64,000 nt of DNA from Thermodesulfobacteriota bacterium (GCA_963675595.2 CAXXLZ010000002.1:1216001-1280000), one strand, 5' to 3'; positions 1 through 25,507 are shown, counted from the stretch's first letter. The notes: generated by a model from the sequence alone, not told the origin. Numbers and translations: made by a program.

Positions 1-438
1 GGAGATCTGCAAAGGCTCCGCGAACACCCCACCTCCGATCCCATAGGCCCTGTGATCCGTGTCATCGTAGACAAATCCGCCGTATCCGGCGAAAAAGGAG
101 TTCCCGTAGACAACGAGGTCCAATCCATACGGATTGTCGGCGTCGTCGGTGACCTGATGATCGAACTTGACCACGGCCCAGTCCCCCGTGCTGAAGGTGG
201 TGATGGCATCGTCTCCCCAGGCCGCCTCCACAAGACTCACATGGCTCGTTCCCCCGCCCCACGCCGGAATGATCGTGGTGGGTTTTCCCAAAAGGTCGTT
301 TGCATCGTTGTAAAGCCCGGAACCGTCCAGGCTCGCGGAACAATCCACCAACTCGGTGGCGAAAATCGAGGCGTGAGCCTGTCCGGCCGCCAAGATCAGC
401 ACCGTGCAGAGCAGGACGAACCTACCTACCATTTTCAT
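1..438 (-). CDS. Secreted cell-surface protein, partial (runs off the window); probably PEP-CTERM-type, possibly cobalamin-binding
   Basis: Not in the ORF track. Hand-translated open frame MKMVGRFVLLCTVLILAAGQAHA-SIFATELVD...VVKFDHQVTDDADNPYGLDLVVYGNSFF; signal peptide; AAGGAGG/GGGAGA RBS-like tract upstream; third gene of a co-oriented run. Confidence 0.8.
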   Translation of the reverse strand, partial: MKMVGRFVLLCTVLILAAGQAHASIFATELVDCSASLDGSGLYNDANDLLGKPTTIIPAWGGGTSHVSLVEAAWGDDAITTFSTGDWAVVKFDHQVTDDADNPYGLDLVVYGNSFFAGYGGFVYDDTDHRAYGIGGGVFAEPLQIS

Positions 439-469
439 TCGATTCTCCCTTTCCTCCTTTGCGCCCTCA

Positions 470-1090
470 TCATCCGACGGTCGTCCTGCGCCTTCTCCTG
501 AGTCCCGCCAGACCGACCAACCCGCTGCCCAGCAGCCACACCGCGCCGGGTATGGGCACCGTGGAGCATTCTCTGACGATCCAGTTGTTGTTCACGATGC
601 CGGCGGACTGGACCAAGCCCTGGTCTCCCGTTCTGCATTTCACGGTGCCCCCGAAGAAGTACACGCCGGCCACCTCGCCGGACCCGGTCACCCCGTACAT
701 CCTGGGATAGCCCTTGAAATAATCGGTCGCCCCGAGGAAGCTCACCAGGTATTCGATCTCGTCCAGCGGCCAATCAGAGGGATCACCGCTCCTCCAGTAG
801 CCGAGTTCAATGTCCGCGTTCACCAGAAGTTCAATCACTTCCGCCTTGGTGGCGTAGCGGAATCCCTCGAATTCTCCGCCATCCCCGAATTGGGTGGATA
901 CATAGCTTCTCGTCATGCTCAGCCCGAAGGACATATCGAGCCATTCCAACCCGGTTTCCGTGTCCAAAGTGACGCTCCCAGTCCCGAAAACCGCATCGTC
1001 CCGTTCCAGCAGAGAAGCATGCGTTTGGGAAATCAGGAGCAGTGAAAGCACGAATAAAGACGCAAGTTGCACCCATCGTAATCTGCTCAT
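470..1090 (-). CDS. PEP-CTERM (VPLPA-type) sorting-signal protein
   Basis: Signal peptide; C-terminus VPIPGAVWLLGSGLVGLAGLRRRRR. Confidence 0.9.
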   Translation of the reverse strand: MSRLRWVQLASLFVLSLLLISQTHASLLERDDAVFGTGSVTLDTETGLEWLDMSFGLSMTRSYVSTQFGDGGEFEGFRYATKAEVIELLVNADIELGYWRSGDPSDWPLDEIEYLVSFLGATDYFKGYPRMYGVTGSGEVAGVYFFGGTVKCRTGDQGLVQSAGIVNNNWIVRECSTVPIPGAVWLLGSGLVGLAGLRRRRRTTVG

Positions 1091-1124
1091 TTCTCAGCTT
1101 CCTTTTCTGTTTGATTTGTGCGCT

Positions 1125-1856
1125 TCAGCCGCGCATTCTGCGGCGAAAACCGATCAGACCCATCAAACCACTGCCCAGCAACCATATCGCGCCGGGAATG
1201 GGGACCACCGCCGCCTGTGCGGCCAAAGGAGTAATCGGCGCCGAACCGTCCCCGTATCCGGCAGTGCCGCTGAAACTCCAGCCGTCCCAGGAACCGTCCG
1301 ACAGATTGCGTGACGAAATCCCGTTTCCGGAATAGCCCCACTCGGAACCGCCGTCGCTTACCCAGTAACTCCAGTACCCGCTGTACCAGCCGTCCACGTA
1401 ATGATCGTCCGGGTCCTCGGGAGTCCCGTCTTCACCGTCCCATTCCCCCGGCACGTAACCGAACCCGTCATTGTCCAGGTCATAGCCGAAACCGGATACG
1501 GTGTAGGCGCCCCCGAACATGTCCCACCACTGCAGCCTGACGTACAGACGGGAATCGTCCCCGTCTAAGCCGCCCGCGTAGGGACCACCGCTCGCCGCAC
1601 CGTTTCCGAAAATAGCGGCGATCATATCGGCGCCGGTGGCCTCACCGTCCCATCGATAACCCCAAGCCAGACTCTCGGGTTCTTTGCCGTCGCGCCAGTC
1701 GATGACCATGGCGGCCTCATTGGAGCCTTCACCCACCCAGTAGGTAATGTCGTCAAAGCTGAAATCCACATACGGGTCCGCCGCGGCCGGCCCGCAGCAA
1801 ACCGCCGTCATCAGCAAAACCGCGGCGAATACCGTGGACAAATTCTTCATCTTCAT
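1125..1856 (-). CDS. PEP-CTERM (VPLPA-type) protein with a Trp/Tyr-rich domain resembling the DUF4430/transcobalamin-like beta domain
   Basis: Start MKMKNL after AAGGAGAG; signal peptide; YWVGEGSNEAAMVIDW...LAWGYRWDG and YWSYW..WGYS..G...R.LSDGSWDGW motifs; VPIPGAIWLLGSGL..RRR tail. Confidence 0.85.
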   Translation of the reverse strand: MKMKNLSTVFAAVLLMTAVCCGPAAADPYVDFSFDDITYWVGEGSNEAAMVIDWRDGKEPESLAWGYRWDGEATGADMIAAIFGNGAASGGPYAGGLDGDDSRLYVRLQWWDMFGGAYTVSGFGYDLDNDGFGYVPGEWDGEDGTPEDPDDHYVDGWYSGYWSYWVSDGGSEWGYSGNGISSRNLSDGSWDGWSFSGTAGYGDGSAPITPLAAQAAVVPIPGAIWLLGSGLMGLIGFRRRMRG

Positions 1857-2314
1857 TTTCAAGGCAACTCTCCTTGTGTGACGGAGCCTTCGCCATCGGA
1901 AGCGCTCCTCGTGCGCTATCACTTCTGTTCGTGCGTTCCTTCGCGTTCCGGCCCGGCGTTTTCGAAGGCCCACAAGCACGCTGCCCGGCGCCCACACGGC
2001 TTCCGGAAACGGACGCTTTATTCTTCGCATTGAATGCAGATTGGCTGATATCGCGAGGCGCGAGGGGAATCCGTGGAGAAAGTTCCCTTTCTCTTGGGAT
2101 TGACGGATACCGATGGATGGGTTATCCTAAGACTGTTCGTTCTCTCCTAGGAGAGGCGAACGGTACGCCCGGATTCGCGCCGGTGCGAAATTGGAAGGCC
2201 TGCATGGCGTCTTGGCGGAAGCGTGCGGGCCTTCTCCTTTTCTATCTTTTCTGTTCGAACGTTCTTCAGCACCTCCTTCCCATGGGCACGGCCCGTGCGT
2301 TTGCTTGTCCCCGC

Positions 2315-2363
2315 AAAAAAAAGGACAGCCGGGCTGCTGCAGAATGCGGCAACCCGGCTGTCC
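2315..2363 (-). terminator. Intrinsic terminator (expression platform of the c-di-GMP-I riboswitch)
   Basis: Minus strand GGACAGCCGGGTTGC-CGCATTCTGCA-GCAGCCCGGCTGTCC followed by T8; the 5' arm is the 3' strand of the aptamer. Confidence 0.85.
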
Positions 2364-2470
2364 GGAGTCGAACCTGAAGCGTTTCCGGGAACACGCTTCC
2401 GTCCGAACGTCTTTAGGACCCGTGGCTTTCCGACCCCCGGTTTCCCGGGGTGTGGCTTTCTCTCAAGTCG
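2345..2470 (-). ncRNA. c-di-GMP-I (GEMM-I) riboswitch with extended P3
   Basis: AAGCCACACCCCGG-GAAA-CCGGGGGTCGGAAAGCCACGGGTCC...GGACAGCCGGGTTGCCG matches the GEMM-I consensus (GNRA tetraloop, GGAAAGCC junction, AGCCGGGTTGCC 3' strand). Confidence 0.85.
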
Positions 2471-2621
2471 CGCCGAAAGATAATCAGATTATTCGGGAAC
2501 CTTCAGGTACTTCCCTCTGCGCCACCATCCGTCCTCACTCTGTTTTGGAGACTTTTTACAGGATGGTGGAGTCGGTCCCCTTCCCTGCGCCTTACTCTCT
2601 TTCCGGCACCTTGTTTACGAC

Positions 2622-2684
2622 CGTTTACACCAATACCGTCGGCAATGCTTGTCCGATATTGCTAAAAACTTGGACAATGTTGGC
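2622..2684 (-). promoter_or_regulatory. Tandem AraC-type boxes plus -10 (promoter A)
   Basis: Minus strand GCCAACATTGTCCAAG-TTTTT-AGCAATATCGGACAAG-N20-TAAACG. Confidence 0.7.
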
Positions 2685-3074
2685 ATCGGGCAGATTTTCC
2701 GTCTTCGGGGACTGAACCTTGCCGAAGAAAAACCCGGACCGAGCGCTTCGCGCTCAATCCGGGTCGGTTGGAGGTAGGCCGCTTCCCAGGGTGAAAGGCG
2801 GCTGGAAGGAAACGAGTCGTTATCAGTCGGAGAGGTGTAAAACGCGATCTCCCACGCATCGCGCTTCATCCCTCGTTACCGCGACGTCCTCCATGTGCGC
2901 TTCGTACATCGGAAATTGCGCGCCTTGCCTGTCATTGTTCTTCCTCCGTCCGCAAGACTCGTTCAATCAAAACGGATCGCCCCGACTCCGCCCATACGGC
3001 CGGCCGACATGCGGTGTAATTTCTCCGCTCGCAAGTCGCTTCATCACGAAACCGCGAAGGACCGATGCTCATTC

Positions 3075-3902
3075 TTATCCCGCCTTTTGATTCCGGGATC
3101 CGAGCAGCTTCCTTTCCGCTTTCATATAGTAGGAAGGCGCCACCCCCATGAGTCTCTTGAATATTCGAGTGAAATACGAGACGTTGTTGAAACCCACCGC
3201 GAAGCAGGCCTCCGATACGTTCATCTTTTGTTCCAGCATGAGAAGCTTCGCCGCCTCGATCCTCCTTTTGTTCAGATACTCACTGAAGGTAAGGGAAGTT
3301 TCCGATTTGAACACACGGGAAAAATGATACTTACTCATGCCGTTGGCCTTCGCCACCTGTTCCAACGTGATGGGTTGCATATAGTTCTGTTCGAGGTACA
3401 GAATGGATTTCTCCAGGTTGCGGGGAATCTTCCAATGTTCCCTGCGCAGGGAGACGATTCGATTCGATGGGTTGGACCCCATGCCGCGGAAGACGTGTTT
3501 GATATGGCCGAAGGCCAGCCGGTAAAAAAAATCTCGGAGTTTCTCGTGATGTTGAAGCATCACCAGGAAATCCTCGCTCTCTTGAACGTAGCAGGTCACC
3601 GGCTCCAGGCACAACAGGAGTTTGATGGACGGGCTTTCGGAAAGCACCTCCACCAGACCGAACCAATCTCCACGGCGTATCGTGCCGCATAACGTGCTGC
3701 TCTGGCAGGGGACCTCCCAATGAGCCGACCCGGATGCCAACACCCCGATCTGTTTCACCTTCTCTCCGTTTCGAAGCAGCGTGGACCCGGTGGGAAACAA
3801 CACGGGGCGCAAACCCAAAACCACCGATTTCACGGCCCCCTCGTTCAGATCGTTCAAGGGGCACAGCTCGTTCATTTCGGTTTCGACCTCAGCCCGGCAC
3901 AT
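3075..3902 (-). CDS. Transcriptional regulator: cNMP-binding-like N-terminal domain plus AraC HTH
   Basis: FPTGSTLLRNGE...IGVLASG...GDWFG cNMP-fold pattern; C-terminal ITLEQVAKANGMSKYHFSRVFK...VGFNNVSYFTRIFKRLMGVAPSYY; ATG at 3902 follows GAGG (alternative GTG at 3911). Confidence 0.9.
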   Translation of the reverse strand: MCRAEVETEMNELCPLNDLNEGAVKSVVLGLRPVLFPTGSTLLRNGEKVKQIGVLASGSAHWEVPCQSSTLCGTIRRGDWFGLVEVLSESPSIKLLLCLEPVTCYVQESEDFLVMLQHHEKLRDFFYRLAFGHIKHVFRGMGSNPSNRIVSLRREHWKIPRNLEKSILYLEQNYMQPITLEQVAKANGMSKYHFSRVFKSETSLTFSEYLNKRRIEAAKLLMLEQKMNVSEACFAVGFNNVSYFTRIFKRLMGVAPSYYMKAERKLLGSRNQKAG

Positions 3903-4117
3903 CTTAGACACCTCTTTCGTTCCAAAAAAAAGATCTCACCTCGGACAACCAAGGCAAGACCTGGAACTCGCCGGTGAAGGACAGGATACACGGGGGCCCG
4001 ACGTCGCGCTTAGGGCAACGACCTCATGACCGGGACCCGGCGCTTGCGCCCGGTCCGGCCCGCTCGATCCTTCTCGGCATTCCACCATGCCTTGATTCCC
4101 GAGGGCATACAGTGGAG

Positions 4118-4285
4118 ATCATCTCGGCAGGTCTCCTGGCTTGTGGTTCGTCCTACTCGCCGCACCTTCCCGGACCGAAACGTCCAGTGGTGAATAGCGG
4201 CTTTCGTCCCCACACACAGTGGCGATCCCGCAGCGGCTTCCGCCCCGCTTTCCCTATTATGCCCTTACCGGGCGCCTGAGATGAT
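4118..4285 (-). ncRNA. Cobalamin (B12) riboswitch
   Basis: Minus strand AATAGGGAAAGCGGGGCGGAAGCCGCTGCGGGATCGCCACTGT...CCACTGG..CCGGGAAGG...AAGCCAGGAGACCTGCC (B12 box); P1 ATCATCTC/GAGATGAT. Confidence 0.93.
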
Positions 4286-4318
4286 AACGGATGTCATTAT
4301 GCTACTAGGTACACTTCT

Positions 4319-4347
4319 TGTATACCCTCAACAGCGGCGGTTGGCAA
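4319..4347 (-). promoter_or_regulatory. Sigma70-type promoter of the B12 riboswitch-regulator transcript
   Basis: TTGCCA-N17-TATACA just upstream of the riboswitch. Confidence 0.55.
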
Positions 4348-4358
4348 ACACGACCCGC

Positions 4359-4405
4359 CTCTGCTCTCAGCTCTCAGCTCTCTGCTCTCTGCTCTCTGCT
4401 CTCAG
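4359..4405. repeat. Heptamer tandem repeat (CTCTCWG)x6
   Basis: ctctg ctctcag ctctcag ctctctg ctctctg ctctctg ctctcag. Confidence 0.9.
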
Positions 4406-7143
4406 GAAATATCGTCAAACATCAATTCCACGGTCGTCTCAACCGTCCCGAAGTTGGGAATCCGTGTTTCCACGGTTCCGCTGCCGGCATCAACGGCACT
4501 CAAATCAAATGTGTAGTCTCTACCGTGCAGGTCGTTGGATACGGATATCCCGTCGGTGTAGTCCGGGTCCAGGAACACGGTATACCCTCCGTCTCCCATG
4601 GTCGCCACCACCACACAGGAACCCGCGGAGTACTTCTGCAAATACAGGCTGAAAACCCCGTCGGCGCTTTTCCAGATCCCGTTTCGAGGATAAGTATCCT
4701 CGAAATCCACATCCGCGAACCTGAGTTCCACGGTCTTGATCACCTCGTCGAACCCCGGCAGAGAAGCCGTCACCGTGGCGCCGGTCGCGTCCGCGGCCGC
4801 CAGGCTCAGGCTGAATCCCTTGCCGTCGATATCCTGCCCCACGTTGATTCCGTCCCTGTAATCCGTATCCAGAAACACCGTGTACGCACCGTCGCCCATG
4901 GTGGCGATGACGATGCACGAGTTCGTGTCGTATTTCTGAAGATAGAGGCTGAGCACGTCGTCGGCGCTCTTCCAGATCCCGTTGGAGGGATACACGGCGG
5001 CGGAAGAGGTTACGGTAATATGGTCCGTAAAGGTTTTGGTCACGGTTCCATAGACGTTGGTCGCCGTCAGGGTCACCGTGTACTTGCCCGGCTGTGAGTA
5101 TACATGCACCGGATTCTGCTCCGCACCGGTGCCTCCGTCGCCGAAAATCCATGTCCAGGACGTGGGCCCGTTGGTGGATTCGTCGTCAAAGGTCACCGTA
5201 AGAGGCGCCGGACCGCTGGTGGGCGTGGCTGAGAACCCGGGAACGGGCGGTTGCTCGGAATCGATCACCGTGATGTAGTCCGTGCGAACCTTGAAGTCGC
5301 TTCCGCCGTCATTGGAAACGGTCAACTGCACGGAATAGGTTCCCGGTTCGGTATAGGTATGAGACGGGGCCTGGTAGTCGGCCGTTTCTCCATCGCCGAA
5401 ATCCCAACTCCACTGAGTGGGGTCGTCGGTGGATTCGTCTTTGAACATCACCTCCAAGGGCGCCTTGCCGCTGGTGGGAGCGGCGCTGAAAGCGCAGGTC
5501 GGAGCCGTGGTCGTCCCCCCGCCGTCGGTCACGGTAATGTAGTTCTGCCTCGTTTTCTCATCGGTTCCCGCACTGTTGGTAACCTCGAGGCCAACCGTGT
5601 ACGTGCCGGGAGTCGTATATTTGTGCGTGGGATTTTGGCTCCCGCTCTGGGAACCGTCTCCGAAATTCCACACCCAACCGGTTGGAACGCCCGTGGAGGC
5701 GTCCGTGAACGTCACCGAAAGAGGCGCCGATCCGTTCAAGGGCGCGGCCGTGAAGTCGCTCACCGGAGTGACCGGAGTAGCCGCTTCCGTTACCGTGATG
5801 TAGCCCGTTCGCGTCTTGCTGTCGGAATCGCCGCCGTTGGACACCGTCAACGTGACGGAGTAGGTCCCGGGATATTCGAAAGTATGAGGGGCATTCTGTG
5901 TGATGGCAGAGGGTGAATCGCTGAAATCCCACTGCCATTCCGTGGGCGATCCGTCGGATAGATCGGTGAAATGAACGGTCAAGGGAGCCGTACCGGTCGT
6001 GGGGTCCCCGGAAAAGTCGCACACCAGGTTTTCCACGGCCCCCGTTACGGTAATGTAGCCCACCTTGGTTTCGGTATCGTTCCCCCATTGATTCTTCGCA
6101 TAAAGTGATACCGTATATACCCCGGGCATTGAATAGACGTGAGATGGATTTTCCTGTCTTATGATCTTCCCATCCCCCAGATCCCATTTCCAACTGGTGG
6201 GGTCGTTTGAGGATTGGCTGGTGAATTGTACGGTGAGGGGCGCGGCGCCCGTGGTGGGGGTCGCTGAAAAAGCGGCCACAGGCGGATTGCCCTCCACCGT
6301 GATGAGCGCTTCCCTGGTTTTGCTGTGGCTGCCGAAGGCGTTGGTCACCGTAAGCACCACGGTGTACACCCCGTCGTTCTGATACACGTGCGCCGGATCG
6401 GACTGGGTGCTTGTGGACCCGTCTCCGAAATCCCAATCCCACTGGGTGGGGTCCCCCTCGGACAGGTCCGTGAAGGACACGGTCAACGGTTTTTCACCGC
6501 TGGTGGGCGCGGCCGAAAAGTCCGCCGAGGGAATCGCCTCCGTACCGTAATAGTCCGGTCCCCCGTCCCCCAGAAGCACGGTCTTGGAGGCGTCGGTATA
6601 CATATCCAGTTCGGAAGGACCGCCGGCTACAAGAAAGTCCCACCCGTCCTGCTCAATGAATTCGATCCACACATCCTCCCCGTTGGCAAGGCCTCCGTCA
6701 TATTGGAAGGTGGCCGTGAACAGAAGAAAATCCTCTCCTTCACTTATGTCTTGATGCGGCCCATAGCCGAGCAAACTCCATTTTCCGATATGCCGTATGG
6801 CGCCGGCGTCGGCCTCCGGATATTTCCGAGACCCCTTTTGCTCATACCAGGCATTAGGGTCGAAAGGATAATAAAGCATTTCCGTTGGGCCATAGGTCAG
6901 ATACTCAAATGTCAACTCGTCACCGTCCGCCTGAGTATCATCAAACCCCAGAGTAAGGCCCCAGGCGTGCAACTCGTCGTCGTGTTCCGCGTGGAGGTAC
7001 ACTTTCGCCTCGAAGGTTTCTCCGTTTTCGAGGGGCCCCCGGGAACCCACGGGCTGCATCCAGAGGAAGTGAGCAAAACCGGGAACAACGGACAGGAACC
7101 CGAACATCACTAGGACCACAAATCCGAGCGTCAACCTTCGCAT
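4402..7143 (-). CDS. Secreted protein: cohesin-like N-domain, six PKD domains, two C-terminal ~100-aa repeats
   Basis: Start MRRLTLGF after AGGAGAG; signal peptide; six F.A.PT.G.APL.V.F....WxWxFGDG-type units; two YP.NGIWKSAD repeats. Confidence 0.9.
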   Translation of the reverse strand: MRRLTLGFVVLVMFGFLSVVPGFAHFLWMQPVGSRGPLENGETFEAKVYLHAEHDDELHAWGLTLGFDDTQADGDELTFEYLTYGPTEMLYYPFDPNAWYEQKGSRKYPEADAGAIRHIGKWSLLGYGPHQDISEGEDFLLFTATFQYDGGLANGEDVWIEFIEQDGWDFLVAGGPSELDMYTDASKTVLLGDGGPDYYGTEAIPSADFSAAPTSGEKPLTVSFTDLSEGDPTQWDWDFGDGSTSTQSDPAHVYQNDGVYTVVLTVTNAFGSHSKTREALITVEGNPPVAAFSATPTTGAAPLTVQFTSQSSNDPTSWKWDLGDGKIIRQENPSHVYSMPGVYTVSLYAKNQWGNDTETKVGYITVTGAVENLVCDFSGDPTTGTAPLTVHFTDLSDGSPTEWQWDFSDSPSAITQNAPHTFEYPGTYSVTLTVSNGGDSDSKTRTGYITVTEAATPVTPVSDFTAAPLNGSAPLSVTFTDASTGVPTGWVWNFGDGSQSGSQNPTHKYTTPGTYTVGLEVTNSAGTDEKTRQNYITVTDGGGTTTAPTCAFSAAPTSGKAPLEVMFKDESTDDPTQWSWDFGDGETADYQAPSHTYTEPGTYSVQLTVSNDGGSDFKVRTDYITVIDSEQPPVPGFSATPTSGPAPLTVTFDDESTNGPTSWTWIFGDGGTGAEQNPVHVYSQPGKYTVTLTATNVYGTVTKTFTDHITVTSSAAVYPSNGIWKSADDVLSLYLQKYDTNSCIVIATMGDGAYTVFLDTDYRDGINVGQDIDGKGFSLSLAAADATGATVTASLPGFDEVIKTVELRFADVDFEDTYPRNGIWKSADGVFSLYLQKYSAGSCVVVATMGDGGYTVFLDPDYTDGISVSNDLHGRDYTFDLSAVDAGSGTVETRIPNFGTVETTVELMFDDIS

Positions 7144-7219
7144 TCGTTCTCTCCTGAAATCGGAGTTAGGGATTCGGAGCATGGTGTACAAATACGTAAC
7201 CTGCTTTACCTTGCTGAAC

Positions 7220-7282
7220 ATTATGGATGAAAAATTCGGCCCATTCTTGTCCGTTATTGCTCAAAATCAGCATTATCTTGCT
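7220..7282 (-). promoter_or_regulatory. Tandem AraC-type boxes plus -10 (promoter B)
   Basis: Minus strand AGCAAGATAATGCTGA-TTTTG-AGCAATAACGGACAAG-N20-CATAAT. Confidence 0.7.
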
Positions 7283-7411
7283 GTCTCGCCTTTATGCCCC
7301 GATTCTCGAAACGGATTCCATGCGTCCCATTCGGCCGTTCAACTGTGGGGAATATATATAAGGGATCCTCCGGACGGAAACCGATCCGGACCTCGCAAAA
7401 AAAAGCATGAC

Positions 7412-7474
7412 GGCAAGGAAGTCCATATTTTCCGCAATATAAGTCCAGCATCCTTCCCAAAGACCGGATATACC
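7412..7474 (+). promoter_or_regulatory. Tandem AraC-type boxes plus -10 (promoter C)
   Basis: GGCAAGGAAGTCCATA-TTTTC-CGCAATATAAGTCCAG-N20-TATACC. Confidence 0.65.
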
Positions 7475-7507
7475 TCTCTCCAATAGTACGCGTCCGACGC
7501 ACTTCCA

Positions 7508-7585
7508 CTTTCGAAAAAGCCACACCCGTCGTGAGGCGGGGCCGGAAAACTTCGGGTCTCCAGAGAGACGGCCGGGTTGCCGAAA
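7508..7585 (+). ncRNA. c-di-GMP-I (GEMM-I) riboswitch
   Basis: AAGCCACACCCGTC-GTGA-GGCGGGGCCGGAAAACTTCGGGTCTC-CAGA-GAGACGGCCGGGTTGCCG. Confidence 0.85.
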
Positions 7586-7607
7586 GGCAGCCCGGCTTTT
7601 GTTTTTT
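7570..7607 (+). terminator. Intrinsic terminator overlapping the aptamer 3' strand
   Basis: GCCGGGTTGCC-GAAA-GGCAGCCCGGC followed by TTTTGTTTTTT. Confidence 0.85.
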
Positions 7608-7775
7608 CCGGGCCCATGCGCGGGGGACGTTTGGAATGGAAACCCGAACCCGAAACCCAACCCCCAAAGCCCGCCTCGGTACGGGACGGCCGGCGGGTCG
7701 GCAAGACCCACGGTTTCACTCCGGAGTTCAAATCGAAACCGGAGGCAAGAACCCATCGGAACAAGGAGAAAGATC

Positions 7776-16128: not shown

Positions 16129-16270
16129 GGTGCTTCCAGCGGATCGGAGTACCACGGGCAATGAGGTTCCCTAAGGTCGAGCAATGGGTTTGCGGCTGAA
16201 ACGCAAGAGGAAAGGCTTCCACGGAAATGAGGGCCGTGACGCTCGTCACGGTCAGGCGGACAGGAAAGCT

Positions 16271-16663
16271 ATGAACATCATGATTCGGATCAGACTAGGT
16301 GCGGCGATTCTACTTCTCACGGCGGGGCTCGGGTATTCTCCGGTCCACAGCGAAACACCCGTCGGAAACTTCAGCCAAGGGAACATCCACGAAGTGGTCG
16401 TACCTCGCTTCGGAGCCCACTTGATCCAGACCCGACAACCGGTGAAGCGGGTCTCGGTGGCGGAACCGACCATCGCGGATGTGAAGGTCATCAGTCCCTT
16501 CGATCTGCTCATAGAAGGGCGAGGACAGGGGATCACCACGTGCGTCGTCTGGTACAAGACCGAGGGGGGAGAAATCTACCGGGTGAAGGTGAATCGAGGG
16601 GCCGAAGTGGAGACCCTGTTGGGAACGGAGCTCTCTCAGGATAAGTCGTTATGGGGATGGTAA
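16271..16663 (+). CDS. Stand-alone pilus-formation (secretin N-terminal) domain protein
   Basis: Signal peptide; PVKRVSVAEPTIADV...LLIEGRGQGITTCVVW. Confidence 0.8.
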   Translation: MNIMIRIRLGAAILLLTAGLGYSPVHSETPVGNFSQGNIHEVVVPRFGAHLIQTRQPVKRVSVAEPTIADVKVISPFDLLIEGRGQGITTCVVWYKTEGGEIYRVKVNRGAEVETLLGTELSQDKSLWGW

Positions 16664-18120: not shown

Positions 18121-18150
18121 TTCCTAACGGATTTCCCCAAAGCGAGGACG

Positions 18151-19389
18151 ATGATGCCTGAGAAGTTGCGGGGTCTGCTGGTCAGCGACAGAACCGCCCT
18201 TGCGGCGGATATGCGGGACGAGATTGCCTCCAGAGTCAACCTGGAAGTGATCTTTACATCGTCCAATGCGGCTTATCCTCTGATCAAGGAAAAGGCGCCC
18301 AAGCTCCTTTTCATTGATGCGGTCCGGAATCCCGAGTCGGCCATGAGCCTCGCCGCACGAGTAAGACGGTTCCTCCCAGGCACTCTGGTGTTCGCCCTGT
18401 GCGAATCCAGGGATCCGGACCTCATCCTGCGCTTCCTGCGCGCCGGCGTCAGCGACTACCTCGCCTATCCGCCGGAGGCCTCGCACGTACTCATCTCCAT
18501 AGACACGGCCCTTGACGCGGAACGACGCAAACGAAGAGAGGGAGAAGTTCTCGCGGTGTTCAGCTGCAAAGGCGGACAGGGTGTGACGACCACGGCGGTG
18601 AATCTCGCCGATCATGTTCGGACCCTGACCGACGCCAAGGTCCTCCTCGTGGACTTCAATTTCCGATCCGGCGACGTGGGGCTGCAACTGGGCGGGCATA
18701 CTACATACGGTTTCACACGATTTATCCACGACATCGACAGACTGGACGAGAATCTTCTCTTCTCTTCCACGGAGCTACATCCCAACGGATTCTACCTCAT
18801 GTCCGCGAAACCGGATATGCGAGCCGAGGACGGAATCGCTCTGGAGCAGATCAGCCAGGGGTTTCACATATTGAAGGAGTTTATGGACTTTACCATCGTG
18901 GATCTGGGCAGCGACTTCAACGAGAGAACCGCAACCGTGTTGGATGTGGCGGATCGAATCCTTTTGGTGGCCCAACAATCCGTGCCCGCCGTGCGCGGCA
19001 TCGGCCGCGTGCTGTCGCTTTTCAGAGAAGCGGGATACGGCGACGAAAAAGTGAAGATCGTGATCAATCGGTTCGAAGGAAACCACATCGTGGGTCTTAA
19101 GGAAATCGAACGGGCCCTGCAGCGGAACGTCTGCGCAACGGTGGCCAACGATTACGCGGCGGTGTCGGATGCCGTGACCCAAGGGGACCTCCTCACCAAA
19201 GCCCATGACTCTTCTCGCGCGAACGCGGACCTGCGCCTCCTCGCGAGGACGCTCACCGGCATCCCGGAGAACGGCCACCGCCCCGACTCCAAATGGAAAC
19301 GGTTGCTCAAACGTTTTCCGTCTTCTCTGGGCATCCCCGCACGAACCCGCAAAGAGCCGCAGCCTGAAACGCATGAGGACGCATCATGA
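18151..19389 (+). CDS. cpaE: CpaE/TadZ pilus localisation ATPase (receiver-like + MinD)
   Basis: VFSCKGGQGVTTTAVNLA deviant Walker A; receiver-like N-terminus. Confidence 0.9.
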   Translation: MMPEKLRGLLVSDRTALAADMRDEIASRVNLEVIFTSSNAAYPLIKEKAPKLLFIDAVRNPESAMSLAARVRRFLPGTLVFALCESRDPDLILRFLRAGVSDYLAYPPEASHVLISIDTALDAERRKRREGEVLAVFSCKGGQGVTTTAVNLADHVRTLTDAKVLLVDFNFRSGDVGLQLGGHTTYGFTRFIHDIDRLDENLLFSSTELHPNGFYLMSAKPDMRAEDGIALEQISQGFHILKEFMDFTIVDLGSDFNERTATVLDVADRILLVAQQSVPAVRGIGRVLSLFREAGYGDEKVKIVINRFEGNHIVGLKEIERALQRNVCATVANDYAAVSDAVTQGDLLTKAHDSSRANADLRLLARTLTGIPENGHRPDSKWKRLLKRFPSSLGIPARTRKEPQPETHEDAS

Positions 19390-20744
19390 GTCTGGTCGAG
19401 CGACTCAAAGGGGGGATCAATGAGGGCAAGCCGCCTGATTGCAAGCTTCCCGGCGGCCGCCCGGACATGTCCGCCTACTACAAGCTTAAGAATAAAGTCC
19501 ATTCGAGACTCGTCGAAACACTGGATTTGGGAAGCATACCGGACCTCCCCAAAGAGACTCTCGAGGACTCCATCGGGGAAGCCGTCACGGAAGTCGCAAT
19601 CAAGGAGGGATTCCCGCTCAACAAAAACGAACAAGACGCCCTGGTCTCCGACGTATTGAACGAAATACGCGGTCTGGGACCCATCGAGCCTTTGATCCGG
19701 GACGATACGGTTCAGGATATTCTGGTGAACACCTTCGAGCACGTGTACGTCGAAAGAGAGGGGGTCCTGGAACTCACACCGATCCGTTTCCGAGACAATG
19801 AGCACCTAATGCAGATCATTGATAAGATCGTGTCTTCCGTGGGTAGAAGAATCGATGAGTCGTCTCCCATGGTGGATGCCAGACTATGGGACGGCTCCCG
19901 CGTCAACGCGATTATTCAGCCGGTGGCTCTCGACGGACCCATACTCTCGATCAGAAGATTCGGCTACCGGCCTTTGAGAATCGAAGATTTGGTGCAAAGA
20001 CGAAGCATCCCGGCCGAGATTGTCGAGTACCTGCAAGCCGCCATCCGGGCGAAACTCAACATGCTCATTTCAGGAGGAACCGGAAGCGGCAAGACCACGT
20101 TGCTCAACATCCTTTCCGCTTTTATTCCGAGTTCCGAGCGCGTGGTAACCATCGAGGACAGCGCGGAACTCCAACTGCAGCAAGCCCACGTCGCCCGACT
20201 GGAATCCAGACCTCCCAACGTCGAGGGGAGAGGCGAAATCACTCTGAGAAGCCTGGTCCGCAACAGCCTGAGAATGCGTCCCGATCGAATCATCGTGGGC
20301 GAGGTGAGGGGCGCCGAAGCCCTGGACATGCTCCAGGCCATGAATACCGGACACCAGGGTTCCATGAGCACCATTCACGCCAACACTCCTCGCGACGCCC
20401 TGTCCAGGCTGGAGATCATGGTGCGCATGGGCGCCCTGCAAATCTCCGAAGGAGCCCTGCGAAGCCTCATGGCGAGCGCGGTGAACATCGTCGTTCACTT
20501 GGAACGTCTGTCCGACGGCAAAAGAAGACTCCTTTCCGTGTCCGAAGTCGTGGGAATGGAGGGTGAGGTCATCGCCATGCAGGAGGTGTTCGTCTTTGAA
20601 CGGCGGGGCGTTTCCTCCTCCGGCCGCATACGGGGTGAGTTCAAAGCCACGGGTGCGCCTTCCATTTACGTCGAGCATATGAAGCAATACGGAATAACGA
20701 TCGACCCCGCAGTGTTCAAACTGCAAAAGCCTGTGGGGGATTAG
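19386..20744 (+). CDS. tadA: TadA/CpaF assembly ATPase
   Basis: GGTGSGKTT; TIEDSAEL; LRMRPDRIIVGEVRG; MNTGHQGSMSTIHAN. Confidence 0.97.
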   Translation: MSLVERLKGGINEGKPPDCKLPGGRPDMSAYYKLKNKVHSRLVETLDLGSIPDLPKETLEDSIGEAVTEVAIKEGFPLNKNEQDALVSDVLNEIRGLGPIEPLIRDDTVQDILVNTFEHVYVEREGVLELTPIRFRDNEHLMQIIDKIVSSVGRRIDESSPMVDARLWDGSRVNAIIQPVALDGPILSIRRFGYRPLRIEDLVQRRSIPAEIVEYLQAAIRAKLNMLISGGTGSGKTTLLNILSAFIPSSERVVTIEDSAELQLQQAHVARLESRPPNVEGRGEITLRSLVRNSLRMRPDRIIVGEVRGAEALDMLQAMNTGHQGSMSTIHANTPRDALSRLEIMVRMGALQISEGALRSLMASAVNIVVHLERLSDGKRRLLSVSEVVGMEGEVIAMQEVFVFERRGVSSSGRIRGEFKATGAPSIYVEHMKQYGITIDPAVFKLQKPVGD

Positions 20745-20747
20745 AGC

Positions 20748-21707
20748 ATGCAATCAGTGGTGTTCATTCTGGTGTTTGCTTCGGTGCTGCTTTCGTTCGT
20801 GGGATTGTATCTTCTTTGGACAAACCGGCGCACCGTTTCCAAAGACTTCGTACTGGAACGAATGGTTCCGCGCGAAACGGGGGATGCCCTGGCGTCGGAG
20901 CAGCGTACGGCCCGCTTGAGAAACGCGGGTTGGGTGGAAACCGTGTGCGCCCCTTTCATCAGGCTCGATCTCCTGGCCCCCCTGCTCTCTTCCATCGGGA
21001 TTCCCTGTTCGGCCGCAACCTTTCTGTGGATTGTCCTCCTCTCCGGTGGGCTCCCATTCGCGCTGTGCCTCGCGGCCTCGGGTTCCCTAAGCGTGGGTTT
21101 TATCGCGGCCTCTATCGGCCTTTCCGTGCCCTTCGCCTACTTGACGTACCGAAGAAAGAGAACGGAGAGGAAGCTGGTGGAGCAATTTCCCGATGCCCTC
21201 GAATTTACCGTTCGCGCTCTTCGCGCCGGTCAGTCTTTGGACAAGGCCCTGCAGGGCCTCGCATCCAACCTCACGGAACCCATGTCCGGTCAAATCCGCT
21301 TCATTTACGATGAAATGTCCCTGGGACTTCCCTTCGCCGAAGCCTTCAGAAGGTTCGAATCGCGATTTCCCAAGGTAGCCGAAGTGAAGATATTCTGTAC
21401 CGCTCTGATCGTACACAGAGAAACCGGAGGAAATCTTGTCCGCATCCTCGAAGTATTGAGCGACAACATCAGGCAACGCATGCGACTGGACTCCCAGATA
21501 AAAGCGACAACAGCCGAAGTCAGGATCACGGGCATTATTTTGGGGCTGCTTCCCTTCGCCCTGCTGGGAGTCTTCTACCTTCTGAATCCCGAGTATATTC
21601 GGGTGCTGTTCATCCATCCGGTGGGACGGAAACTGCTCCTCTCCGCCGCGGGTCTCGAACTTATCGGTTTTTCGGTCATGCGTGCCATGACCAGGGTGGA
21701 GATGTGA
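20748..21707 (+). CDS. tadB: TadB inner-membrane platform protein
   Basis: QFPDALEFTVRALRAG...RETGGNL T2SSF motif. Confidence 0.92.
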   Translation: MQSVVFILVFASVLLSFVGLYLLWTNRRTVSKDFVLERMVPRETGDALASEQRTARLRNAGWVETVCAPFIRLDLLAPLLSSIGIPCSAATFLWIVLLSGGLPFALCLAASGSLSVGFIAASIGLSVPFAYLTYRRKRTERKLVEQFPDALEFTVRALRAGQSLDKALQGLASNLTEPMSGQIRFIYDEMSLGLPFAEAFRRFESRFPKVAEVKIFCTALIVHRETGGNLVRILEVLSDNIRQRMRLDSQIKATTAEVRITGIILGLLPFALLGVFYLLNPEYIRVLFIHPVGRKLLLSAAGLELIGFSVMRAMTRVEM

Positions 21708-21710
21708 CCA

Positions 21711-22622
21711 ATGGATCGGCTTCTCCCTGCCGCCGCCTTTGTCGCCGTACTGGCGTTGTGTATGTCGGCGGTGTCGGCATACGAAAAACGAAAAAGAAGA
21801 GAGCAGTTGCTGCAACGTCTTTCCGTATCTTCGGACACGCAGGAATCCGGCTTAAAAGAACAGCTTCTGGAGTTCCTCGGGTCCATGGGACGTTTTGGTG
21901 TGCCCAAAAAAGAGGAGGAAGCCCTGCGGATTCGCAAGGACCTTCTCCACGCCGGTTTTCACGGCGAAGACATTCTTCTTCAATATTACGGTGCTCGTTT
22001 GTCCCTCGGCTTGGCATTCGCGATTCTGTTTCCCCTGTTCCTCGCGATGGTAGGCAAGTCCGTGTCACAGAACCTTTTCTACATTCCTTTCGCCCTGACT
22101 TTGGGCTACTACCTGCCCCCCTTGTTCGTCGCGAGAGCGAAGAAGATACGCGGACGAAGGATATTCCGTGAGCTCCCGGACACCATTGATTTGCTGGTCA
22201 TCGGTCTGGAAGCCGGTTTGAGCCTGGATGCCGCACTGTACCGGGTAAGCAGGGAAATGAAGAACATGGCGCCCACCGTGAGCAAGGAGTTTGGAAGGTA
22301 CTTCTTTGAAACACAGGGAGGAATTCCGAGAAATGAGGCGCTTTCCAACATCAAGAAGCGTTCTTCCGAAGAAGGACTCCGTTCCTTGGTGGACGTCTTG
22401 CTGCAGTCCGTCAAATTCGGAACGGACATGAGTGCCGCTTTGAGAGCATATGCGGAATCCATGCGTTTTCAACGAGTCGTTTTAGCGCAGGAGAAAGCGG
22501 CGAAGATAGCGCCCAAGCTCACCATACCCATGATCCTCTTCATCTTGCCGGCCCTTGTCATCGTCATCCTGGGTCCGGGGGCCATCCGCCTTCTGGAACG
22601 GCTGTCCGGGAGCTTCTTCTGA
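21711..22622 (+). CDS. tadC: TadC inner-membrane platform protein
   Basis: ELPDTIDLLVIGLEAGLSLDAAL...AQEKAAKIAPKLTIPMILFILP. Confidence 0.93.
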   Translation: MDRLLPAAAFVAVLALCMSAVSAYEKRKRREQLLQRLSVSSDTQESGLKEQLLEFLGSMGRFGVPKKEEEALRIRKDLLHAGFHGEDILLQYYGARLSLGLAFAILFPLFLAMVGKSVSQNLFYIPFALTLGYYLPPLFVARAKKIRGRRIFRELPDTIDLLVIGLEAGLSLDAALYRVSREMKNMAPTVSKEFGRYFFETQGGIPRNEALSNIKKRSSEEGLRSLVDVLLQSVKFGTDMSAALRAYAESMRFQRVVLAQEKAAKIAPKLTIPMILFILPALVIVILGPGAIRLLERLSGSFF

Positions 22623-23449
22623 TGGAATCTCAACGCTTGGCGACAACATCAAGAACCACCACCCGGGTTCGATTCCTTCTTGTTTCTATTTGTTTGGTTT
22701 GCTTGGTGCTTACCACGGGATGCCGGTCCCATCTGGAAAATACTCGGGGAGAATCAACGGAGGAGCTCAAAAAGGAGGCCCTGGAAAGGAAACAGGCTCT
22801 CGATGAGCTGGATTCCAAATGGCGGACCGAAGAACCGGACCACGTGGCCCTGGCTCGCATCATGGTGGACCGCAAGCTGTACGATGTTGCGTTGCGCCTT
22901 CTCCGGGAATCCGATGCACCGGACAGTGCGGAACGCTTTTACCTGGAAGGTGTGTGTCATCGGGAAAAGAGCCGTTATGAAACGGCGATTCTTCAATTCA
23001 AGAAAGCAATCGAGTTGTCCCCGCGTTACTCACAGGCCTACGAGGGAATCGCTCTTACGCACGACCTCATGGGACAGAGGGAAAGCGCACACGAGTACTA
23101 TGCAAAGGCCATCGAGGAGAATCCTTCCAGCTCTCGATTCTACAACAACTTCGGTGTGTCGTTGCTGGTGGCCGGCCGATACGAGGAAGCGGCGGAGCGC
23201 TTGGAGACCTGCGTACGGCTGGATCCGGAGTCTCTCCGCGCCTTCAACAACCTTGGCCTGGCCTACGGGCTGGCGGGCAGGGAGGAAGACGCCCTTAAAG
23301 CCTTCTTGAAGGCCGGAGATACGGAACATGCTTACAGGAACATGGCCTTCATGTACCGGGTCCGAGGAAACAAAGAAAAGAGTCGAGAAATGGTCCATAA
23401 GGCCCTGGAGCCGAAAGACATCAAGGATGAAGGTGCCAAGAAACCCTGA
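22622..23449 (+). CDS. tadD: TadD-like TPR lipoprotein (pilotin)
   Basis: Lipobox LTTGC; multiple TPRs (FYNNFG, AFNNLG). Confidence 0.8.
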   Translation: MESQRLATTSRTTTRVRFLLVSICLVCLVLTTGCRSHLENTRGESTEELKKEALERKQALDELDSKWRTEEPDHVALARIMVDRKLYDVALRLLRESDAPDSAERFYLEGVCHREKSRYETAILQFKKAIELSPRYSQAYEGIALTHDLMGQRESAHEYYAKAIEENPSSSRFYNNFGVSLLVAGRYEEAAERLETCVRLDPESLRAFNNLGLAYGLAGREEDALKAFLKAGDTEHAYRNMAFMYRVRGNKEKSREMVHKALEPKDIKDEGAKKP

Positions 23450-23519
23450 ACCCGGCAGGCCTTTTCCGGCGGACTGAACCAGGGGTTCCGGCATCCCCTG
23501 CCCTGAGTCGGATACGGTA

Positions 23520-25037
23520 ATGACAAAGCGAGGAAAAGACATGGGACCCGCCGACGACCAAAAGCACCACCGGCGCACGTCCTGGACGGGAAACGAACAA
23601 GGTTCCGTGGTCCTCGTGGTGGCTGCGGGCATGCTGGTCATTCTCGGATTCCTGGCCCTCGTCCTGGACGGCGGCTACCTCTACGCAACGAGGAACAAAT
23701 ACCAAAACGCCGTCGAGGCCGCGGCAATGGCGGGCGCCATCCATTTGTGCGGGTCCGATCCCGAACTCACGGCTCGGGAAATCGCTCGGGAGAACGACGT
23801 CCCTTATTCCGAGGAGGAAGGTCTCGTTGTCGTTTTCGGTTTCTATGACGAGCACGACGACTACGGGGACTTCCCGGAATACAAGGACTTCGTTGAAGAC
23901 CCGTTTCCCGAAACGAGCAGAAACGAGGCGGTGCGCACCGGCGGCACCGATCCCGAGTATAACAACGCCGTGCTGGTTTCCCTGAACGGAAGCGTTGACA
24001 CCGCCCTGGCCGGCGTATTGGGATACCATGTGGTGCAGGTTTCCGCGGCCGCGGTGGCCTATCTGGAAAGGTACCTCATGGTCTCTTTGGAGGAGGACGG
24101 CGAAGGAATCACCACCGCTTCGAAATCCTGGGATTGGACCGACGGAGGAGGCAACAGCAACCATAACCAGCCTGAATTCCGCAACGGCAATCTTTACAGC
24201 AACGGAGACATTACCTTTTTCACGGGCACCACCTGCACCGGCCCGACCTTTGTCGATTCCAAGGCCTATGCGCATGGAACCGTGAGTCCGGAAGAACTCG
24301 GGACCAACCAGGCTTCGCTGCTGACTCCTCCCGGGACTGATTGGGAGGCCCTGCGGGAAGCGGCGGAAACCCACGGCAAGGTCATCGACTCGCTCTTCTT
24401 CCAGACTCTTCCTCAATACAACAAAGCCCTACGCAAAGGCGTGGATCGCTACGGAAACTGCTACCGATGCAATACGGACGGGTCAAACCCCTATTTCACC
24501 CCGCGTCCGGGCAATCACGACGGCAGAACCTATTACGTGAGTGAAGACGTGGGAGATTCCCTCTGGATCGGCGACGTTCAGTGCAGCGAACTGTACTCCG
24601 AAGAATACGACGTAACCAACCTTACCCTGGCGTTCGAATCGGACCACCTGGGATTCAATCACGACACTCCCGTCATCACGTGGGGAGGCGAGGAAGCGGA
24701 CGAAACGGTTCGGTTTTACGGGAGGGATTTGATGATGGGAGCCGTCTCCGATTACGAATACGCCAGTGACAGCGGCAATCTATTGGAGGGCGTGGTTTTC
24801 AATGCTGAAAGGGACTTCGGATACCGGCCCGCCGGCGGCGGCTTCGGGGATGCGGAGGATTTGCCCCCGGAGATTCGGAAGCTTCGGGTCTTTGCGGGGG
24901 AACGCATCATCATCGGAGGGTACGAAGGATACATAGCGCATCAGGACCGATACCCGGTCGGCTTTGACGCCAATTTCGGCCCGCCTTGCCCACCCTCCAT
25001 GGTGCGCCTGGGGATGCTCGAACACACAGACGACTGA
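23520..25037 (+). CDS. tadG: TadG-like minor pilin/adhesin with a large unknown C-domain
   Basis: NEQGSVVLVVAAGMLVILGFLALVLDGGYLY..RNKYQNAVEAAAMAGA. Confidence 0.85.
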   Translation: MTKRGKDMGPADDQKHHRRTSWTGNEQGSVVLVVAAGMLVILGFLALVLDGGYLYATRNKYQNAVEAAAMAGAIHLCGSDPELTAREIARENDVPYSEEEGLVVVFGFYDEHDDYGDFPEYKDFVEDPFPETSRNEAVRTGGTDPEYNNAVLVSLNGSVDTALAGVLGYHVVQVSAAAVAYLERYLMVSLEEDGEGITTASKSWDWTDGGGNSNHNQPEFRNGNLYSNGDITFFTGTTCTGPTFVDSKAYAHGTVSPEELGTNQASLLTPPGTDWEALREAAETHGKVIDSLFFQTLPQYNKALRKGVDRYGNCYRCNTDGSNPYFTPRPGNHDGRTYYVSEDVGDSLWIGDVQCSELYSEEYDVTNLTLAFESDHLGFNHDTPVITWGGEEADETVRFYGRDLMMGAVSDYEYASDSGNLLEGVVFNAERDFGYRPAGGGFGDAEDLPPEIRKLRVFAGERIIIGGYEGYIAHQDRYPVGFDANFGPPCPPSMVRLGMLEHTDD

Positions 25038-25207
25038 GGACCGCGTTCGGAAGTTCCCCAGTCTATGACTGCGGAATATGATGCATTGACGTCTGATGCG
25101 CAACACTCTCGCCATGCGGCCGGCCCACATCAATGCCTGAAATGAAGGGAGAATGTCCCGTGAAGAGACTCGAGAACCGTGAAAGGAAGTCTGTTCGACG
25201 CAGGACC

Positions 25208-25507
25208 ATGAGGACGCCTTGGCGCTGTTTGCTCCTGTGCGTGGGCCTCACCGCCTGCGCCTGTTCCGCGACGCCGGAACGCGCCGCCATGGAAACCAAC
25301 GCGGCCTTTCGAGGCTATTTCGAGGCTTCCTTCACCGCTCAGGTGATCAACCGGAATGCTCCGGCCGATGCAACACCGGTGGAAGGCTATCCCGGTGAGA
25401 TCGCGGCAAAGGCCTATCAGGACTTCAAGGATGGCTTCGGGGAAGCGAGTTTCGAAGAGCAGGTGGGACAAATGCAACTGGGAGATGAGGCTTTCGCCGA
25501 CAAATAG
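25208..25507 (+). CDS. Small Tad-associated lipoprotein
   Basis: Lipobox-like LTACACS; AQVINRNAP..TPVEG.PG motif; last gene of the tad run. Confidence 0.65.
   Translation: MRTPWRCLLLCVGLTACACSATPERAAMETNAAFRGYFEASFTAQVINRNAPADATPVEGYPGEIAAKAYQDFKDGFGEASFEEQVGQMQLGDEAFADK

Follow-up and report, generated by a model that had tools for sequence, protein, structure and literature searches.

A candidate B12-gated AraC regulon of surface proteins and a Tad pilus in a Thermodesulfobacteriota bacterium

Corrinoid sharing shapes anaerobic communities, and dedicated surface capture of corrinoids has been characterised mainly in gut Bacteroides. Here we describe a stretch of 64,000 nucleotides (nt) from a Thermodesulfobacteriota bacterium (GCA_963675595.2 CAXXLZ010000002.1:1216001-1280000; hereafter the window), in which positions 1 to 25,507 hold a candidate regulon: four promoters (A to D) with a shared motif, an AraC-type regulator gene (araC) behind a B12 riboswitch, genes of surface proteins with exosortase-type C-terminal tails (CTERM), and a Tad/Flp pilus cluster. 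An earlier note on this DNA had proposed that the AraC relays low B12 to these genes and thereby builds a corrinoid-capture or cell-contact apparatus. In our analysis, the best explanation of the whole is that a B12-gated AraC activates a regulon for surface corrinoid capture together with the Tad pilus, a reading to which, judging from sequence comparisons, we assign a probability of about 0.7. The regulon is real and conserved, consists of parts of known kinds, and is apparently undescribed.

Several described systems resemble parts of this locus. PEP-CTERM/exosortase systems reportedly (Haft, 2006) have a PrsR/sigma54 box; the window shares with these systems the CTERM-tailed surface proteins, and exosortases are present in the genome (two full ones), but the motif and the promoter type are different here, and 3 of 18 tested CTERM gene starts carry the motif. 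For the class II activators of the AraC/XylS family (XylS at Pm, FoxR at foxA, and Btr), the accessible part of PMC9804782 gives XylS sites at -70/-56 and -49/-35 and a 7+14 bp period for FoxR. As far as that part goes, these systems and the locus here have in common two direct repeats with a 21-bp period, a proximal repeat ending at about -35 to -33, and a regulator gene beside nutrient-uptake targets; unlike theirs, the N-terminal domain here resembles a cyclic nucleotide monophosphate (cNMP)-binding domain, and synthesis of the regulator is predicted to be gated by a B12 riboswitch. Tandem gates of B12 and cyclic di-GMP (c-di-GMP) riboswitches are already described in the available text on Desulfobacca acetoxidans, where adenosylcobalamin and c-di-GMP-I riboswitches form 'NOT A AND B' gates and where the authors speculated on a link between B12 and pili (Sherlock et al. 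2022, PMC9481103). The two signals and the logic are the same here, target leaders in related islands carry the two aptamers in tandem in either order, and D. acetoxidans encodes a relative (P0347) of one of our surface protein families (F2, below). The available text of that account mentions no transcription factor, promoter motif, PEP-CTERM identity, or Tad cluster, and the window differs in that its B12 input would be relayed through a protein.

The Bacteroides capture proteins BtuH, BtuG, and BtuJ/DUF4465 (excerpts of PMC8941943, PMC12751083, and PMC13398666) likewise belong to a B12-regulated cluster of secreted proteins. PKD stalks are common to both, F2 matches the C-terminal domain of BtuH, and islands related to ours carry DUF4465. 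Unlike the excerpted Bacteroides systems, the locus here has exosortase-type tails instead of lipid anchors, an added family resembling the transcobalamin beta domain (F1), regulation by both an activator and c-di-GMP, and a linked Tad pilus, with no btuB in the locus. Listeria PocR is controlled by an antisense B12 riboswitch (described via excerpts of PMC9943018); there as here, a B12 riboswitch controls a transcription activator, so that its control extends to a regulon, and the logic is opposite, as PocR is switched on by B12 via an antisense RNA and acts on enzymes that use B12, not on surface proteins and pili. A paper on Pelobacter, in its accessible part, mentions Flp pili without B12 control. 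The earlier note knew of no described system with this wiring. We found none either: our search of freely available papers, which did not extend to regulon databases, subscription journals, or the PMC9481103 supplement, turned up neither a cNMP-domain AraC governed by a B12 riboswitch nor an operator of this kind nor a Tad cluster under B12 control.

The four promoters have the coordinates, boxes, TTTTN spacer, 21-bp period, 20-nt gap, and hexamers that the earlier note quoted for them. Promoters A (2622-2684; box 1 2684-2669, box 2 2663-2648, hexamer 2627-2622) and B (7220-7282; box 1 7282-7267, box 2 7261-7246, hexamer 7225-7220) lie on the minus strand, and promoters C (7412-7474; box 1 7412-7427, box 2 7433-7448, hexamer 7469-7474) and D (12321-12404) on the plus strand. 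Promoter D, which scores 31.2 bits with D itself excluded from training, contains three boxes in phase (12321, 12342, and 12363; hexamer 12399-12404), the one at 12321 scoring 11.6 bits. A look-alike A-run upstream of promoter C is out of register.

These four motif sites are not due to chance. With a 37-column matrix trained on the other three, 4-5 of 13,588,392 genome positions scored as high as the held-out site or higher, a number that includes this site and those used for training; each held-out site thus ranks within the top 4-5 positions, and the motif is enriched over the genome background. A matrix built from 28 sites of other genomes placed D, D-21, B, A, and C within the top 7 positions (24.0-30.9 bits), the best score in the reversed genome being 20.7 bits. 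None of the 28 sites comes from this genome or from G002, a genome of the same family but another genus; since they were first found with a matrix seeded here, this test is reciprocal and not blind. The cross-genome consensus is nGCAAnAAAnTnCAAn TTTTT AGCAAnAAAnTnCAAG. The four-part architecture is real, with two corrections to its first description: the TTTTN spacer is rich in T but varies (each column has T in 18-20 of 27 sites), and conservation of the '-10' is confined to its first two letters. In 32 of 36 hand-listed sites that were found without that column, TA follows after a gap of exactly 20 nt (the runner-up spacer has 10), and hexamer position 6 is T in only 5 of 27 sites; because this sixth position is not conserved, the motif promoters appear to have weak -10 elements. 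Relative to the predicted start sites, the direct repeats overlap the -35 region, as AraC/XylS sites do.

Three remote motif sites that had been overlooked also head CTERM genes in this genome: those at C2 4131387 and 179509 each do so via a c-di-GMP riboswitch, the latter ahead of an F1-family gene 1 Mb away, and at 1385580 the TA is shifted by one base and a transposase-like open reading frame (ORF) intervenes. At this last locus (L265, G000:C2 1385580-1387856), the transposase-like ORF may have severed the CTERM gene from the regulon. With 4 of 11 c-di-GMP riboswitches in this genome carrying the motif, and the 3 of 18 CTERM starts given above, we rejected the motif as a general PEP-CTERM or c-di-GMP promoter element. 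A site at C2 2822114 (26.7 bits in the first matrix) was dropped, as it lies at a gene end and is absent from the top lists of later matrices, and a match at L027 is a tandem repeat. Strict IUPAC patterns were neither sensitive nor specific, and no statistic was built on them: the first gave 0 matches in G002, and the second missed G447 and G453 and matched 44 of 401 genomes, many as singletons, as in the reversed control.

The synteny and motif conservation extend to G002, where window 1-12,000 has a syntenic counterpart whose genes are about 67-74% identical in DNA, on a contig that ends just after the DUF1573 gene. Its three best matrix matches are the counterparts of A (33.9 bits), C (18.5 bits), and B (18.1 bits), and period and spacer are unchanged in them. 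The distribution of the system is patchy: the AraC was matched in 1 of 40 relatives and, with six candidates per genome scored, in 2 of 400 genomes of the phylum. Among named carriers, Desulfosarcina, Desulfobulbus, and other Desulfobacterales records are the closest. Contigs of three DNA runs over 2000-14000 establish only that strains nearly identical to this one carry the block; as 40 of their 287 letter differences were available, the boxes were judged without these contigs.

The regulator (3075-3902, minus strand) is indeed an AraC (HTH_18, 82.9 bits versus a cut-off of 33.6), with an N-terminal cNMP-binding domain (PF00027, 33.6 bits, cut-off 27.5). Its family comprises about 50 full-length 50%-clusters, and the cNMP-like domain is conserved family-wide. 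No NCBIfam regulator model reached its cut-off, the best being that of PocR, an AraC family member (67.8 versus 500, over the helix-turn-helix (HTH) only). We presume that a conserved Glu and Arg of the phosphate-binding cassette define cyclic AMP (cAMP) binding in CRP-type sensors. In this family, Glu follows GDFFG in 6 of 45 rows and no column holds more than 5 Arg where one is expected, and canonical cAMP sensing by the domain was rejected on these pocket residues.

Of the 45 HTH domains placed in a tree, 20 group together as one clade (support 92/89, with the bootstrap not converged). The best site reaches at least 17.9 bits in 17 of the 20 clade loci; 10 of these 17 sites were in the training set, and of the loci with a best site outside training, 7 of 10 reach this score. 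In 13 of 20 clade loci, versus 0 of 25 other AraC loci, a B12 riboswitch is located upstream at a distance of at most 600 nt; five of these other loci have at most 250 nt of upstream sequence available. Two shortened clade members also have one directly upstream, and Rfam confirmed riboswitches in 9 of 9 loci scanned. Among 80 metagenome AraC loci, L088-L095 were used; in the remaining 72, the match was confined to the HTH. This genome encodes three further AraCs, which do not belong to the clade and lack a motif site. Starting from the motif instead, we checked five genomes with strong pattern matches from the 401-genome scan, and in four of them the strongest new sites lie beside a related AraC HTH. 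Three of these four have receiver-domain AraCs and no B12 context, and two (family f12) have a variant box, GCAATATnTGTCGC, at many promoters with the same geometry. The receiver-AraC genomes support an AraC as the binder; as they lack a B12 context, they also mean that the geometry alone is not B12-specific.

The relay proposed in the earlier note was upheld in every comparative test, as motif, AraC clade, and B12 riboswitch co-occur across genomes. From this coupling, we consider it very likely that the neighbouring cNMP-domain AraC binds the motif and activates the promoters. It could be argued that some other protein, whether a different activator or an alternative sigma factor, occupies the repeats, or that the AraC represses, since strong sites occur without a detected clade AraC in G041 (a 2.5-Mb metagenome-assembled genome) and G427 (an 85%-complete genome) and no T is conserved at hexamer position 6. 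However, motif and HTH clade are tightly coupled physically in both search directions, the box sequence changes along with the related receiver-AraC group, and under repression low B12 would switch off genes whose relatives are directly B12-repressed; this alternative seems very improbable.

As side observations on the motif, f12 genomes (G073, G116, G152, G185, and G217) apparently have a larger second regulon of GCAATATnTGTCGC direct repeats with the 21-bp/20-nt geometry, seen in 5 of 5 sampled, with some sites beside receiver-domain AraCs and no B12 riboswitches (loci L237, L238, L240, L229-L233, L259, and L262-L263). At L257 (G427:C113, 1027-5350), a 41-bit motif site precedes B12 riboswitches and the genes for CbiK and tetrapyrrole methylase. 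Between araC and promoter A, an element of about 106 bp (window 2836-2943) with dozens of copies in G001 and G002 is probably a small repeat or resembles a miniature inverted-repeat transposable element.

The B12 riboswitch that had been noticed ahead of araC is confirmed by Rfam (RF00174, 103.2 bits versus a gathering threshold of 31.5), with the aptamer at 4110-4294 on the minus strand. It is followed by a 14-bp intrinsic terminator with a T-run (3924-3962, minus strand, -19.9 kcal/mol), the putative B12 expression platform. A sigma70-like sequence without the motif, TATACA-17-CATAAT (4296-4324, minus strand), immediately precedes the aptamer and is a candidate basal araC promoter by consensus match only, and a scan for such sites gave no more matches than shuffles (3 versus 4.1). 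In the folding model, terminator pairing is 0.07 in the whole leader and 0.41 in the downstream part, and it reaches 0.99 when a P13-like hairpin is forced at about 4116-4080; in the free leader, the terminator is disrupted by a strand that otherwise forms the aptamer-adjacent hairpin. Masking the aptamer alone did not switch the modelled leader. Taken as modelled, the leader fits a transcriptional OFF switch for B12. No terminator was found between the PKD gene at 4402-7143 and the riboswitch, and therefore promoter B may feed back on araC via read-through. At two other loci (L021 and L093), the leader with riboswitch and araC is immediately preceded by a motif site.

In this genome we count 13 B12 riboswitches, including ahead of biosynthesis genes, two TonB receptors, and ExbBD; those at L267-L278 precede CobN, a ThiC-like radical SAM gene, CbiK, CobQ-like/CbiD, the receptor and ExbBD genes just named, and a cytochrome c assembly gene. 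An Rfam scan detected no B12 aptamer at promoters B, C, and D, and the leader of unit A has no decayed B12 riboswitch at E<=5, so that any B12 input to the four units must come through AraC. Induction of the regulon at low B12 is quite likely.

A second input, overlooked in the earlier note, is suggested by c-di-GMP-I riboswitches behind promoters A and C. That of unit A (2312-2465, minus strand) scores 60.9 bits (RF03167), with the aptamer at 2465-2344 and a terminator at about 2363-2312; that of unit C (7510-7606, plus strand) scores 68.8 bits in Rfam, with the aptamer at 7510-7585 and the terminator at 7570-7597 (gathering threshold 59). Each aptamer overlaps its terminator, in unit A with its 3' arm. 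Since such an overlap is found in ON switches, both riboswitches are predicted to be ON switches. Each has a G at the aligned position that discriminates c-di-GMP from cyclic GMP-AMP, with a numbering of that position that we presume to be correct. The role of this position is described in a legend of PMC9481103. Farther along the window, two diguanylate cyclase genes (GGDEF; 48297-49952 and 53309-55441), one with 7TMR-DISM sensor domains, flank a PEP-CTERM gene (52139-52840) that lacks the motif. The GGDEF pair is a possible source of c-di-GMP.

Unit A consists of five CTERM genes on the minus strand. The first encodes a CTERM-tailed F1 protein (1125-1856, start inferred; predicted local distance difference test (pLDDT) 94.9) and stands ahead of the genes for a CTERM-tailed protein that matches no known family and has a relative in the island of G046 (470-1090) and for a VPLPA/PEP-CTERM-type F2 protein with a BtuH-like fold (pLDDT 97), whose 5' part occupies 1-438 and whose gene extends to window position -428. 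Outside the window follow a CTERM gene of a distant F1 member (-1103 to -441) and another of the F2 family (-2030 to -1161). The sorting signal reaches 28.5 bits (TIGR03370) for the protein at 9404-10087, and others lie just below threshold (18-24.6 versus 25.35).

The modelled F1 structure has the fold of the beta domain of transcobalamin, intrinsic factor, and haptocorrin (Z 11.3, 11.1, 10.8, and 10.5), followed by a DUF4430-type protein (Z 9.7) and then by Z 5.3, so that four B12 binders and one protein of DUF4430 type make up its five closest folds. These matches have a root-mean-square deviation (rmsd) of 1.8-2.5 over 94-107 aligned residues at 7-11% identity, and Foldseek gave weak hits, the best (E 0.37) to transcobalamin. 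For F2, the top Foldseek matches are 8BLW_B and 7BIZ (E 2e-4 to 1e-3, with E<1e-3 only for these two), and it aligns with the C-terminal domain of BtuH at Z 12.2 (rmsd 3.4, 145 aligned) and 11.8 (rmsd 3.1, 139 aligned) with 19-20% identity, the next fold scoring Z 9.0. This BtuH domain was shown to bind B12, according to the accessible part of PMC8941943. Of its B12-contact residues (Asn399, Phe401, Gln333, His476, Tyr510, Trp511, and Trp577), N399-x-F401 has a look-alike in F2, the near-invariant motif G-N-x-F.

Genomic context also points to B12. In 59 of 78 loci (reversed control 0), and in 32 of 36 full-length loci, a B12 riboswitch is located no more than 10 kb from the F2 relative, in most cases upstream of it and in its orientation; these loci belong to Verrucomicrobia, Planctomycetes, Armatimonadetes, and Desulfobacterota. 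No full-length clade AraC was found in the 19 non-Desulfobacterota-type genomes checked. In three related islands scanned, DUF4465/BtuJ CTERM genes stand behind motif promoters, and DUF4465, TonB receptors, and cobalt chelatase are found behind the motif or a riboswitch in related islands. DUF4465 was shown to bind B12, as reported in the excerpted PMC13398666. On these structural models and contexts, cobamide binding by F1 and F2 is fairly probable.

The same regulator and sites might instead serve mainly an adhesion or biofilm programme, in which c-di-GMP and the ligand of the cNMP-like domain would be decisive, B12 permissive, and the folds those of adhesins or lectins. The predicted c-di-GMP ON switches on units A and C would suit such a programme, as would the family-wide conservation of the cNMP-like domain, the carbohydrate-binding modules that are the next-best folds of F2 (Z 8-9), and PEP-CTERM genes behind c-di-GMP riboswitches known in biofilm contexts from the accessible part of PMC12530212. 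We nevertheless regard it as unlikely, given the frequency of B12 riboswitches near F2 relatives, the capture and uptake genes in related islands, and the B12 binders among the best folds of F1.

Unit B encodes a secreted protein with six PKD domains and a repeated C-terminal domain (4402-7143, minus strand, start inferred; Pfam), whose N-terminal domain is shared with the protein at 9404-10087. After its stop codon lies a 7-bp tandem repeat (window 4359-4402), from which 28 bases are absent in the contigs of another study, so that the repeat length varies between strains. Unit C (plus strand) begins with a secreted protein at 7776-9275 that has a probable beta-propeller (Atlas NHL/propeller matches at 0.89, a lead only), TSP3-like calcium repeats, and a C-terminal dockerin-like EF-hand pair. 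It continues with the VPLPA-CTERM protein at 9404-10087 and with two genes at 10408-12227 (a membrane-anchored unknown and a DUF1573 Ig-like protein) that have relatives in the islands of G002, G042, G043, and G045. The cohesin/dockerin labels given in the earlier note are weakly supported. The dockerin side has weak support, from a duplicated calcium-loop repeat visible at the C-terminus of 7776-9275 and a family profile matching TSP3 proteins and dockerins at E 0.0015-0.07; Pfam Dockerin_1 has no match in this protein and is at cut-off in 1 of 5 relatives. The cohesin side is not supported beyond a profile match of 9404-10087 to the scaffoldin cohesin 4UMS at E=0.35, and Pfam found no cohesin in the window proteins (9404-10087 and the N-terminus of 4402-7143) or the scanned relatives; a predicted cohesin-dockerin complex scored 0.00 with an uncertain partner fold, which is no evidence either way.

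Behind promoter D lies the Tad/Flp cluster of 13 genes (12483-25507, plus strand; by Pfam, with CpaE and TadD assigned by AAA_31 and TPR matches and position): flp, tadE, two cpaB/rcpC, a pilus N-terminal domain protein, secretin, cpaE-like, cpaF, tadB, tadC, a TPR gene (tadD-like), a tadG-like gene, and a small lipoprotein-like gene. The two tandem CpaB/RcpC genes (window 13238-16128) each have two RcpC domains. The link between Tad and AraC noticed in the earlier note recurs elsewhere. Each of the seven genomes with a full-length clade AraC has one flp, which in 6 of 7 is on the contig of the AraC within 20 kb and in four is divergently adjacent across the B12 riboswitch; 4 of 7 flp promoters of other genomes score 20.7-27.3 bits. 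Motif sites also precede Tad strings in G447 and L090, and a B12 riboswitch heads a Tad string in G074. The CpaF of the window has 58-67% identity to island CpaFs of other genomes versus 52% to that of its own second Tad locus, which has neither motif nor riboswitch. Co-regulation of Tad with the motif promoters is, on these comparisons, likely.

We also weighed whether the B12-capture regulon is real and the Tad branch a passenger or relic here, with promoter D firing and no pilus made because TadV is missing. No A24 (TadV/CpaA) prepilin peptidase or remnant was found in 12400-26500, while four related clusters have it after flp; the Tad machinery of the window would therefore need a peptidase in trans. 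In G002, AraC and sites are present and no cpaB or flp was found, and 3 of 7 other flp promoters have no clear site (7.0, -2.8, or nothing). Against decay, the other 13 genes of the cluster have open frames, two other A24 peptidases are encoded in the genome (one at the second Tad locus), promoter D has its three boxes, and contigs of a second study cross the flp-tadE gap with no insertion. A relic is quite improbable on this evidence. The most likely role of the pilus is attachment, which is the least certain step of our account. It is doubtful, and offered as speculation, that the Tad system displays, exports, or retracts B12-binding surface proteins to harvest corrinoids from neighbours or the matrix, with the dedicated cNMP-AraC building it only at low B12 and high c-di-GMP.

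Combining these observations, we propose that AraC acts as a class II activator with half-sites at about -69 to -54 and -48 to -33, which would replace the -35 element of weak promoters. Bound cobalamin would favour the hairpin that frees the 14-bp terminator and turn araC off. At low intracellular B12, AraC would be made and would turn on about 23 genes (units A to D) and the three remote CTERM genes, and transcription that continues from promoter B into araC may close a positive loop gated by B12. Units A and C would also require high c-di-GMP, which would make them NOT-B12 AND c-di-GMP gates; relatives would obtain the same logic from a B12 riboswitch inside the target leaders, the input here coming only via AraC. 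The outputs would be exosortase-type surface proteins (four in B12-binder-fold families), stalk and partner proteins, and the Tad pilus. Their most likely purpose would be a surface or biofilm layer that captures corrinoids and passes them to TonB receptors encoded elsewhere.

Several points weigh against this proposal of B12-gated surface capture. Besides the missing peptidase, the flp promoters without a clear site, and the lack of cpaB and flp in G002, three clade loci (L092, L172, and L174) have no good site, strong sites occur without a clade AraC in G041 and G427, and a related motif of identical geometry stands beside receiver-domain AraCs in non-B12 contexts. The genomes are related and many loci were reached via the target gene, so the counts are not independent. 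No TonB receptor is under the motif in this genome, which has its own corrinoid biosynthesis genes (CobN, CbiK, CbiD, and CobQ-like); 'starvation' is therefore relative. Profile searches of F1 and F2 against PDB sequences gave no meaningful match and did not reach BtuH or transcobalamin, and fold likeness alone does not show B12 binding. Elsewhere in the window (28848-39147), a PAS-sigma54 activator gene is followed by genes of an aldehyde ferredoxin oxidoreductase and heterodisulfide-reductase-like/FlpD proteins, which are ordinary for such anaerobes.

For the biology of these organisms, our analysis offers a regulator, an operator, and a target list for a putative environmental counterpart of Bacteroides surface capture, and a candidate ligand for two PEP-CTERM families of no known function, one with a transcobalamin-like fold. 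A Tad pilus would be tied to vitamin status, which bears on the unexplained riboswitch cluster of Desulfobacca and on the speculated link between B12 and pili. The same NOT-B12 AND c-di-GMP logic may be achieved either by tandem RNAs or by a protein relay. The carriers are sulfate-reducer-type bacteria, in which low B12 would turn on surface proteins shaped like B12 binders, together with a pilus.

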